Shown: one piece after another, positions 2,495-2,821 of the stretch
Numbering within the stretch: the stretch's first letter is position 1
Layout of the letters: each line of letters opens with the position of its first letter
Made by a program: the position numbers and the translations under genes
Notes under the pieces: generated by a model
What the model was told of the DNA's origin: nothing
Databases searched by the model: none
The model's input: only the letters and a program-made list of their open reading frames with translations
Virus record (IMG/VR): IMGVR_UViG_2695420658_000009
Strand: one strand, 5' to 3'
DNA from: a virus
Lineage: Duplodnaviria; Heunggongvirae; Uroviricota; Caudoviricetes
Length of the DNA stretch: 5,293 bases

Positions 2495-2821
2495 GTGCTG
2501 ATTGGCTATGTAAGGGTATCAACAAATGACCAGAATACAGACCTGCAACGAAACGCTCTTGTTTGTGCAGGATATGAACAAATATTTGAAGATAAATTAA
2601 GCGGAACAAGGACAGGCCGACCTGGATTAAAACGTGCTTTAAAGCGCCTTCAAAAAGGTGACGCACTGGTTGTCTGAAAACTGGACTGACTGGGGCACTG
2701 TATGCGGCATCTTGTCGTGCTGGTGGTGGAAGCCTAGAAAAAGTATCGGGTGTTGCTGAACCGTGTTGATACATCAACTGCACCTGATATTGAGTGGCCT
2801 ACGAACCCTGTCAGGGAGTAA
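2495..2821 (+). pseudogene. pin: pin/gin-family serine DNA invertase, N-terminal 60 codons intact, then nonsense codons and an in-frame fusion to the 3' end of a tfa gene
   Basis: GTG at 2495 follows a GGGAGA Shine-Dalgarno (2483-2488). Translation [60 protein letters not shown] matches the Pin/Gin N-terminus including the catalytic-serine motif YVRVSTNDQ. In-frame continuation is [45 protein letters not shown]. Stops are at 2675, 2687, 2735 and 2819. The last about 30 codons are a Tfa C-terminus (…[24 protein letters not shown]…), not invertase. Confidence 0.7.

Follow-up and report, generated by a model that had tools for sequence, protein, structure and literature searches.

The G segment of phage Mu has the layout S-U / U'-S' / gix / gin, with an intact gin gene of 193 residues that is followed by com and mom. 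The P segment of e14, a defective prophage of Escherichia coli K-12, likewise places an invertible pair of stf/tfa cassettes beside the gene of the Pin invertase, and there pinE is intact and followed by mcrA. Tail-fibre segments of this general type are exchanged as mosaics among P2, Mu, P1, lambda and e14 (Sandmeier, 1994, as cited in PMC4134206). The described locus that is of the same type as the one treated here is Phi4 of E. coli EC958, a lambdoid prophage at ompW/trpA in which methyltransferase, Rha and ash genes follow. Forde et al. (2014; PLoS One 9:e104400; PMC4134206) gave for Phi4 a 3106-bp invertible segment, listed the same two crossover sites that are considered below, and found both orientations of the segment within a single EC958 culture. 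They also described the invertase gene of Phi4 as severely truncated and concluded that inversion must be the work of another enzyme in trans, perhaps the invertase of Phi1. Their account is without the tfa-tail fusion, the gin/pinE mosaic, the graft origin and the series of stop codons that are presented in what follows.

The DNA analysed here (the window, a stretch of 5,293 nt from a tailed-phage record) resembles the Mu G segment in its order of parts, with two opposed cassettes, each made of a tail-fibre 3' part and a tfa gene, and with a crossover site that adjoins a remnant starting with GTG whose first 191 nt are gin-like. Its features are as follows; numbers such as L001 denote related loci and L010 that of strain 25DN.

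33..915, plus strand: plus cassette, with the C-terminal part of a tail fibre of a third type, 'X' (33-306), and then a tfa ending ...VSRVDTANPEWPQKPE* at 915; 307-862 are masked.
967..1503, minus strand: tfa of the minus cassette, placed from its ORF frame and from the position of the minus-strand tfa in L001 and L012; mostly N.
1506..2378, minus strand: variable 3' part of a tail-fibre gene, minus cassette 'A', abutting the crossover site; taken from the ORF list, with an in-frame TAG at 1653-1655.
2415..2440, plus strand: 26-bp crossover site of the right-hand gix/pix type, TTCTCGTAAACCGAGGTTTTAGATAA, just upstream of the remnant and the sole match in the window.
2495..2685, plus strand: Gin-like invertase head, 96.9% identical to Mu gin; stop TGA at 2675-2677 (W61*).
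2686..2726, plus strand: PinE-like invertase stub, codons 65-78; stop TGA at 2687-2689 (R65*); substitutions cluster at 2687-2701.
2727..2821, plus strand: TfaR/TfaQ-type 3' tail of 30 codons and TAA (Caudo_TAP); stop TAG at 2735-2737 (W81*).
2822..2854, plus strand: native DNA 3' of the resident tfa, comprising a hairpin's left half and the first part of a small annotated ORF; contiguous with the full tfa in L010 and, in L001, with the remnant.
3030..3698, minus strand: class I SAM-dependent methyltransferase, a cargo gene; 99.6% identical to L001 6537-7225 and L010 5110-5798.

The segment 2495-2821 is a single frame in which 78 codons of a Gin/Pin-type serine invertase are followed by the last 30 codons of a tail-fibre-assembly protein of the TfaR/TfaQ type. 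It starts with GTG and retains the codon of the catalytic serine (Ser9, 2519-2521), and translation gives the three in-frame stops listed above. These stand at codons that specify W (codon 61) and R (codon 65) in Gin, PinE and the sister alleles, and W (codon 81) in TfaR and the sister alleles. When the stops were repaired to W, R and W, a Pfam search returned a Resolvase match for residues 3-83 (profile positions 2-91 of 145, E 7e-22) and a Caudo_TAP match for residues 79-105 (profile positions 104-130 of 131, E 4e-12). The resolvase catalytic domain (PF00239) is thus incomplete, the invertase match ending at codon 78-83, and the repaired ORF has no Pfam match to the helix-turn-helix domain PF02796, which full-length relatives possess; after 2726 the tfa tail stands in place of the remaining invertase sequence. 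The Caudo_TAP part (PF02413) is likewise far from full length, as TfaR covers profile positions 1-130. Chimera codons 79-105 match the C-terminal tail, ending DIEWP, of TfaR and TfaQ (from the Rac and Qin prophages), but the chimera has only the last 30 of about 191 codons, one of them a stop. The C-terminal motif W-K-x-Y-R-x-x-L-x-R-V-D-T-S-x-A-P-D-I-E-W-P is present, with TAG as the W codon in the window. The remnant is not an invertase, as it is missing the remainder of the catalytic domain along with the E helix and the helix-turn-helix domain: 2495-2821 is a non-functional relic, unable to encode one, and its frame is interrupted by the three stops in finished genomes as well. In every related genome that we opened RefSeq has a 'recombinase family protein' fragment followed by a fragment of a 'tail fiber assembly protein, missing N-terminus'. 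A preliminary description of this DNA, made from its letters alone, had called the segment an in-frame invertase::tfa pseudogene with nonsense codons in place of parental W, R and W, and had assigned the tail to a lineage other than that of the cassette tfa (...RVDTANPEWPQKPE). Translation, the two Pfam domains, the alignments and the sister alleles agree with it on all of this.

The junction was placed by nucleotide alignment with K-12 pinE, Mu gin, the invertase gene of a P2-like prophage, K-12 tfaR and the full-length tfa of strain 25DN. Invertase identity runs up to 2726 and tfa identity begins at 2727, so that codon 2726-2728 is a hybrid of the two parents. Intact tfa genes elsewhere match the window from 2721-2727 through 2854 at up to 99.2%, and within 2714-2821 only 2714-2726 match invertase genes, the rest being tfa. 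The preliminary description had put the breakpoint at about 2713-2726; invertase identity continues about 13 nt further to the right and the breakpoint is at 2726/2727. The parents read ...GTGCTGGTGG|AGGAG (pin) and ...TCATTGC|TGGAAGCC (tfa) and the window reads GTGCTGGTGG|TGGAAGCC, which leaves an imperfect microhomology of 7 nt (TGGAGGA in pin, TGCTGGA in tfa, TGGTGGA in the product) with TG and GGA, i.e. five of the seven positions, in common. No donor gene with this exact gin/pinE hybrid turned up, which leaves an uncertainty of about 4 nt in the parent sequence at the junction. An illegitimate join at a short microhomology, as had been proposed, is what the parent alignment gives, but not at the proposed S-L-V/L that both parents were thought to share: the invertase parent at the junction is pinE-like and reads VVLVEE, not the Gin-type ISLVGE (Tfa has TSLLEAW).

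The invertase part is itself composite. Over 2495-2685 identity to Mu gin (the 96.9% given above) is matched closely by that to the P2-like prophage invertase (95.3%) and is 70% to K-12 pinE, whereas 2686-2726 are 85% identical to K-12 pinE and 51-54% identical to gin-type genes, and 2700-2726 are identical to pinE of e14. This mosaic of gin and pinE in the invertase head was not part of the preliminary description. An allele with no stops (P0001, locus L013) has a head of the pinE type over its whole length and agrees with the window at every position over ~2700-2806, that is, across the junction. From these alignments we infer, as the simplest order of events, that a pinE-type::tfa fusion came first and would have been followed by a swap to the gin-type set, with a crossover at ~2681-2686.

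The junction is common in E. coli. With a 255-nt junction-centred query and a coverage of at least 80% it was present in 511 of 5,426 complete genomes, and 2300-2854 have matches at ≥99% identity in over a thousand complete E. coli genomes. The prophage remnants that contain it occupy at least four chromosomal sites: near potB (L001, L013), near ompW/trpA (EC958, NCTC86 and MNCRE44; loci L002, L012 and L018), near prfC (L006, strain AR434) and near ybhC-bioA (L007, strain ET846). An exact-pattern scan did not find it in species-representative genomes, and no record of the phage collection that was searched contains it. From the number of stops the alleles could be divided into four classes. 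There is none in P0001/L013, where the frame has 107 residues. One stop (R65*) is present in L006 and L007, two (with W61* added) in L001, and three (with W81* added) in NCTC86, EC958, MNCRE44 and the window. Accordingly codon 61 is TGG in L006, L007 and P0001, and codon 81 is TGG in L001, L006 and L013 and TAG in NCTC86, EC958 and MNCRE44. Judged from these alleles, the series is the stepwise decay of an ORF that was already dead. The preliminary description held nothing on this allelic series.

Two readings would take the stops in another way. The window is from a draft genome, with one ambiguous base (2855) and, just after the feature, an odd join, and the stops or even the whole junction might be a sequencing or assembly artefact, as the preliminary description had itself allowed for the stops (as base-call errors). 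However, the identical junction occurs in the 511 complete genomes, the finished sequences of NCTC86, EC958 and MNCRE44 have all three stops, and natural variation at other loci accounts for the alleles that have fewer stops, so we give an artefact practically no credence. The other reading is that the fused ORF, or its N-terminal product of 60-64 residues, is a functional small protein, for example a modulator of invertases, with TGA perhaps read through. The fusion is indeed in frame, the stop-free 107-residue allele P0001 exists, and RefSeq lists the 60- and 64-residue products as proteins. But the frame is accounted for by a chance of 1 in 3, the stops were gained stepwise (0, 1, 2, 3) at different codons as neutral decay predicts, the dimerization E helix and the DNA-binding domain are absent, and the head was exchanged wholesale between gin and pinE types. 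A functional product is accordingly very improbable, and decay of a dead ORF is the reading that we adopt. It should be noted that a protein search detects in-frame fusions only and hence over-represents them. One further invertase::tfa fusion, independent of the first, was seen in another enterobacterial prophage (P0035, loci L014 and L015); it reads ...SLTDSIDT|AKAPDIEWPVSPE, with the junction at codon 96 inside ATTGATAC, which is common to pin SIDTS and tfa RIDTS. A candidate for a third (P0039, a pin::TfaE tail in an e14-like element) was not counted, as its join coincides with an N.

The origin of the junction was approached by comparison with a backbone that has no invertible module. Beside potB, strain 25DN (L010) has the order J-lom-stf-full tfa-hyp-methyltransferase(-)-tfa remnant-potB. 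Locus L001 shares this backbone, with 95.7% identity up to L001 2753 and 99.4% from L001 6425 on, and between these points L001 2754-6424 (3,671 bp) stands in place of L010 2953-4997 (2,045 bp). The right edge of the replacement corresponds to window 2724-2727 and its left edge falls within sequence common to stf and H. A P2-like prophage has the homologue of L001 2660-6386 in its H...G/G'/H'-site-invertase region, where the homology begins in mid-H and ends at nt 190 of the invertase gene. By alignment, the tfa of L010 ends with the same C-terminal tail as the chimera, and the methyltransferase gene lies downstream of the resident tfa in the lambdoid backbone. The comparison of backbones points to a module of 3.7 kb that would have replaced the end of stf and most of tfa. 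We therefore consider it probable (about 0.8) that the remnant is the right-hand scar of an invertible tail-fibre module that recombined into the stf locus of a lambdoid prophage, and we infer that this took place as a one-step graft rather than as a graft followed by a deletion. The module, of the kind found in Mu, P2-like phages and e14, would have comprised a stf 3' part, tfa, inverted tfa', inverted stf', the 26-bp crossover site and the 5' end of a serine invertase gene. The left crossover would have used the homology common to stf and the P2 H gene, and the right one would have been illegitimate, joining invertase codon 78 to codon -30 of the resident tfa with the frame kept by chance. 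The first version would have had a pinE-like head and zero stops. A later swap would have brought in a gin-type set in place of the cassettes, their crossover site and the initial 190 nt of the invertase gene, leaving a pinE-like stub of 41 nt, and the dead ORF would then have gained R65*, W61* and W81* in that order.

Two other ways of making the junction have to be set against this. The preliminary description had proposed a microhomology-mediated deletion inside a single prophage, which would have extended from mid-pin to the 3' end of a third tfa copy downstream, with loss of the catalytic core and of the intervening DNA. The illegitimate join at a short microhomology and the truncation of both partner genes would be in keeping with a deletion, and a graft with an intact invertase gene followed by a deletion reaching tfa would give the same sequence. 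But the tfa tail together with the hyp gene, the methyltransferase gene, the second tfa remnant and potB is the resident right end of the lambdoid backbone, as in L010. Since that backbone has a tfa without any module, the tail is that of the resident tfa, whose 5' part was replaced along with the 3' part of stf, and no third copy is called for. Moreover, no genome among the matches (in a non-exhaustive search) has an intact invertase gene upstream of this tfa, the intact gin-type genes that were opened were all in P2-like prophages or Mu, and the S-L-V/L homology on which the deletion was to have occurred is absent from the real pinE-like parent. We regard the deletion as unlikely, though it is the strongest competitor. 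The invertase itself might also have made the junction, by way of secondary (quasi) crossover sites inside pin and tfa, and Cin and Gin are known to use such sites according to work cited in PMC4134206. Here, however, the window has no second match to the 26-bp site, even with three mismatches, and the sequences at the join, GTGCTGGTGGAGGAG and TCATTGCTGGAAGCC, are unlike AAACC-NN-GGTTT, which leaves this origin with next to no probability. The graft into the stf locus is thus the reading with which we proceed.

As the invertase gene is dead, the state of the adjoining segment was of interest in its own right, and its persisting invertibility had not entered the preliminary description. The crossover site next to the remnant has the AAACC-NN-GGTTT core, had no match in 200 shuffles of the sequence and is identical to the Phi4_3prime site of EC958 (PMC4134206); its partner is outside the window, and in related loci both inverted 26-bp sites are seen. 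EC958 and MNCRE44, both ST131 and with identical three-stop remnants, differ by a clean inversion of 3.1 kb. The sequences on either side of this inversion agree at 99.4% and 100%, both endpoints are within the 26-bp sites, and the half-sites are exchanged around the common core CCTCGGTTTAC. More widely, the cassette adjoining the remnant is of one type in 239 complete genomes and of the other in 143, sibling isolates differ in orientation (U12A versus U13A-U15A; 4/0 versus 4/1-1 and 4/4), and one strain has been deposited with both versions. There is no functional invertase gene beside the segment at this locus. As the ST131 segment still inverts beside a dead remnant, the invertase must therefore act in trans, which is the view already taken for Phi4.

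Two further explanations were considered for the segment and rejected. A frozen switch is ruled out by the comparison of EC958 with MNCRE44 and by the orientation counts, which show frequent site-specific inversion (the ST131 loci have cassette C). RecA-dependent inversion through a long inverted repeat is ruled out for the ST131 loci, as in EC958 and MNCRE44 no inverted repeat extends beyond the 26-27-bp sites. At L001, NCTC86 and loci of the window type the two cassettes have a perfect inverted repeat of 750 bp in common, and there RecA could also invert the segment. At the window's own locus inversion is implied by the sequence of cassette A, which is on the minus side in the window and on the plus side in NCTC86, its unique part (1477-1672) being 99.5% identical to the reverse complement.

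Wild-type invertases of the Gin/Pin/Hin/Cin group need a Fis-bound enhancer in cis, and the Hin enhancer is about 100 bp from hix (PMC3798978). In Mu the coding part of gin contains three Fis sites, some 550 bp ahead of the mom start (PMC3378877); from the published positions they correspond to roughly gin nt 80-110, or window ~2575-2605. Because 2495-2685 are 96.9% identical to Mu gin and the Fis positions are published, the retained 5' stub probably supplies a Fis enhancer at ~2575-2605. With an intact crossover site and this putative enhancer, the invertase of another prophage in the cell could flip the neighbouring 3-kb segment. It is tempting, though we put it forward only tentatively and would sooner bet against it, to suppose that the cis-acting Fis enhancer is the reason why the stub has been kept and has even been exchanged as one unit together with the cassettes and the site. 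If so, the tail-fibre segment would be a non-autonomous switch reliant on the invertases of co-resident prophages. Joins keeping at least ~230 nt of the 5' end arose more than once, at codon 78 in the E. coli lambdoid prophages and at codon 96 in the other fusion.

The window's own copy of the locus is more decayed than the ST131 locus. Its first 32 nt are the end of IS600, and 863-999 match the reverse complement of the end of the minus-cassette tfa in L001 and NCTC86. The TAG at 1653-1655 is absent from L001, which has CTG at this place where the window has CTA. After the feature comes a 135-bp piece for which an enteroinvasive E. coli has an identical sequence upstream of its ipaH gene; a direct repeat of 17-19 nt flanks the piece, and the single N (2855) is exactly at the join. 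Among complete E. coli genomes there is none with an unbroken match to 1477-3678, none with cassette A next to the remnant and none with exactly the window's arrangement. The window probably stems from a draft genome of Shigella or of an enteroinvasive type. Since IS600 at the left edge and the TAG at 1653-1655 damage both cassettes, a switch phenotype is not likely in the window.

A dead invertase gene beside a live switch means that the elements acting in cis remain and that the enzyme would come from elsewhere, which is relevant to the reading of inversions in long-read assemblies and to the prediction of phage host range from prophage sequences. The junction would mark a myovirus-type invertible module grafted on a lambdoid tail-fibre locus, and the series of 0, 1, 2 and 3 stops could serve as a lineage marker for a family that about 9% of the complete E. 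coli genomes contain, ST131 included. Otherwise its importance is small and lies in annotation hygiene and in the natural history of phage genomes. In the searchable literature we did not find a description of the in-frame invertase::tfa join, the gin/pinE mosaic, the graft, the stop series or the second fusion.

Set beside the known systems, the locus departs from the Mu G segment in that the invertase ends at codon 78 and the host element is a lambdoid prophage, and from the e14 P segment in that the gin-like head has the low identity to pinE noted above. Compared with the mosaics of Sandmeier (1994), as these are represented in PMC4134206, the likeness is that a module of the P2-like H...invertase type sits within a lambdoid stf locus with its left boundary in stf/H sequence, and the difference is that the right boundary, inside invertase and tfa, is an illegitimate join. 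The pin::tfa remnant of EC958 Phi4 differs from that of the window by a few bases and has the same three stops, but the window's cassettes are different ones (A minus, X plus), and the IS600 end, the extra TAG in stf' and the 135-bp ipaH-upstream-like insert are in the window. The truncated invertase and inversion in trans are already published for EC958 Phi4. The locus is an ordinary scar of recombination, common in E. coli prophages, and the points added here are refinements of the well-known mosaic exchange of tail-fibre genes rather than a new kind of system.

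Beyond the methyltransferase gene, and on the same strand, the window carries a second tfa 3' remnant together with a DUF4376 remnant, so that tail-fibre-related genes, each missing its N-terminal part, are stacked at the right end. The arrangement looks like the product of serial module replacements in which the 3' end of the preceding tfa was left behind each time. In L013, the locus beside potB with the zero-stop allele, the two tfa remnants have recombined with each other at 2806 and the methyltransferase gene is deleted. The features to the right of the invertase::tfa remnant are as follows.

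Window 2856-2989: 135-bp piece, missing from the ST131-type (EC958 Phi4-like) loci.
Window 3859-~4032 and 4231-4410 (partly masked), L001 7395-7568: second tfa 3' remnant and DUF4376 remnant, same strand, after the methyltransferase gene.

The 135-bp piece sits within a hairpin 3' of the tfa remnant (region 2837-3009) and is 100% identical to DNA lying upstream of ipaH, which encodes a T3SS effector, in EIEC strain CFSAN029787 and in eight further genomes. A direct repeat of 17-19 nt flanks the piece (GCAGCACGTCTTAAGCA / GTAGCACGTCTTAAGCA), and the lone N at 2855 marks its exact left join. Either recombination with an ipaH-bearing prophage left this piece as a scar, or the scaffold was misjoined here. 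Within the invertase remnant itself, comparison with the zero-stop allele places five substitutions within 15 nt (2687-2701: AGG to TGA, CGT to CAC, AGT to TGT), exactly at the gin/pinE switch point and adjoining 27 nt of perfect identity; this cluster may be recombination-associated.

A TAG lies in frame in the minus-cassette tail-fibre gene (1653-1655, minus strand) where L001, the potB-adjacent locus with the two-stop allele, has CAG; the plus strand reads CTA in the window vs CTG in L001, a G-to-A change of the same type as the TGG-to-TAG change at 2736. Immediately left of the window the plus-strand tail-fibre gene is broken by insertion of IS600 (IS3 family), the terminal end of which occupies window 1-32; a 34-mer of this end is found on plasmids and at as many as 43 places in a single E. 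coli genome. In L001-type loci both cassettes share an inverted repeat of 700-750 bp with 100% identity (L001 3196-3896 vs 6097-5397), whereas the window copy of this stretch diverges by about 1.3%, a pattern suggesting that the two cassette arms are still undergoing gene conversion with each other. Both segment orientations occur in one deposited assembly of E. coli O25b:H4 (NZ_CP015085.1 / NZ_CP015087.1), one of them in the chromosome, the second in a 32.7-kb record of its own, which is the 'alternative contig' artefact of which Forde et al. (PMC4134206) have warned.

In-frame fusion of an invertase to a tfa tail has a separate origin in a different enterobacterial prophage (L014 7001-7330, GCA_902170745.1, and L015), where the fusion ORF of 109 residues adjoins a P4-like integrase module and the join lies within ATTGATAC, common to pin SIDTS and tfa RIDTS. 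An e14-like element may hold a third such fusion, although this is doubtful given an N at the join.
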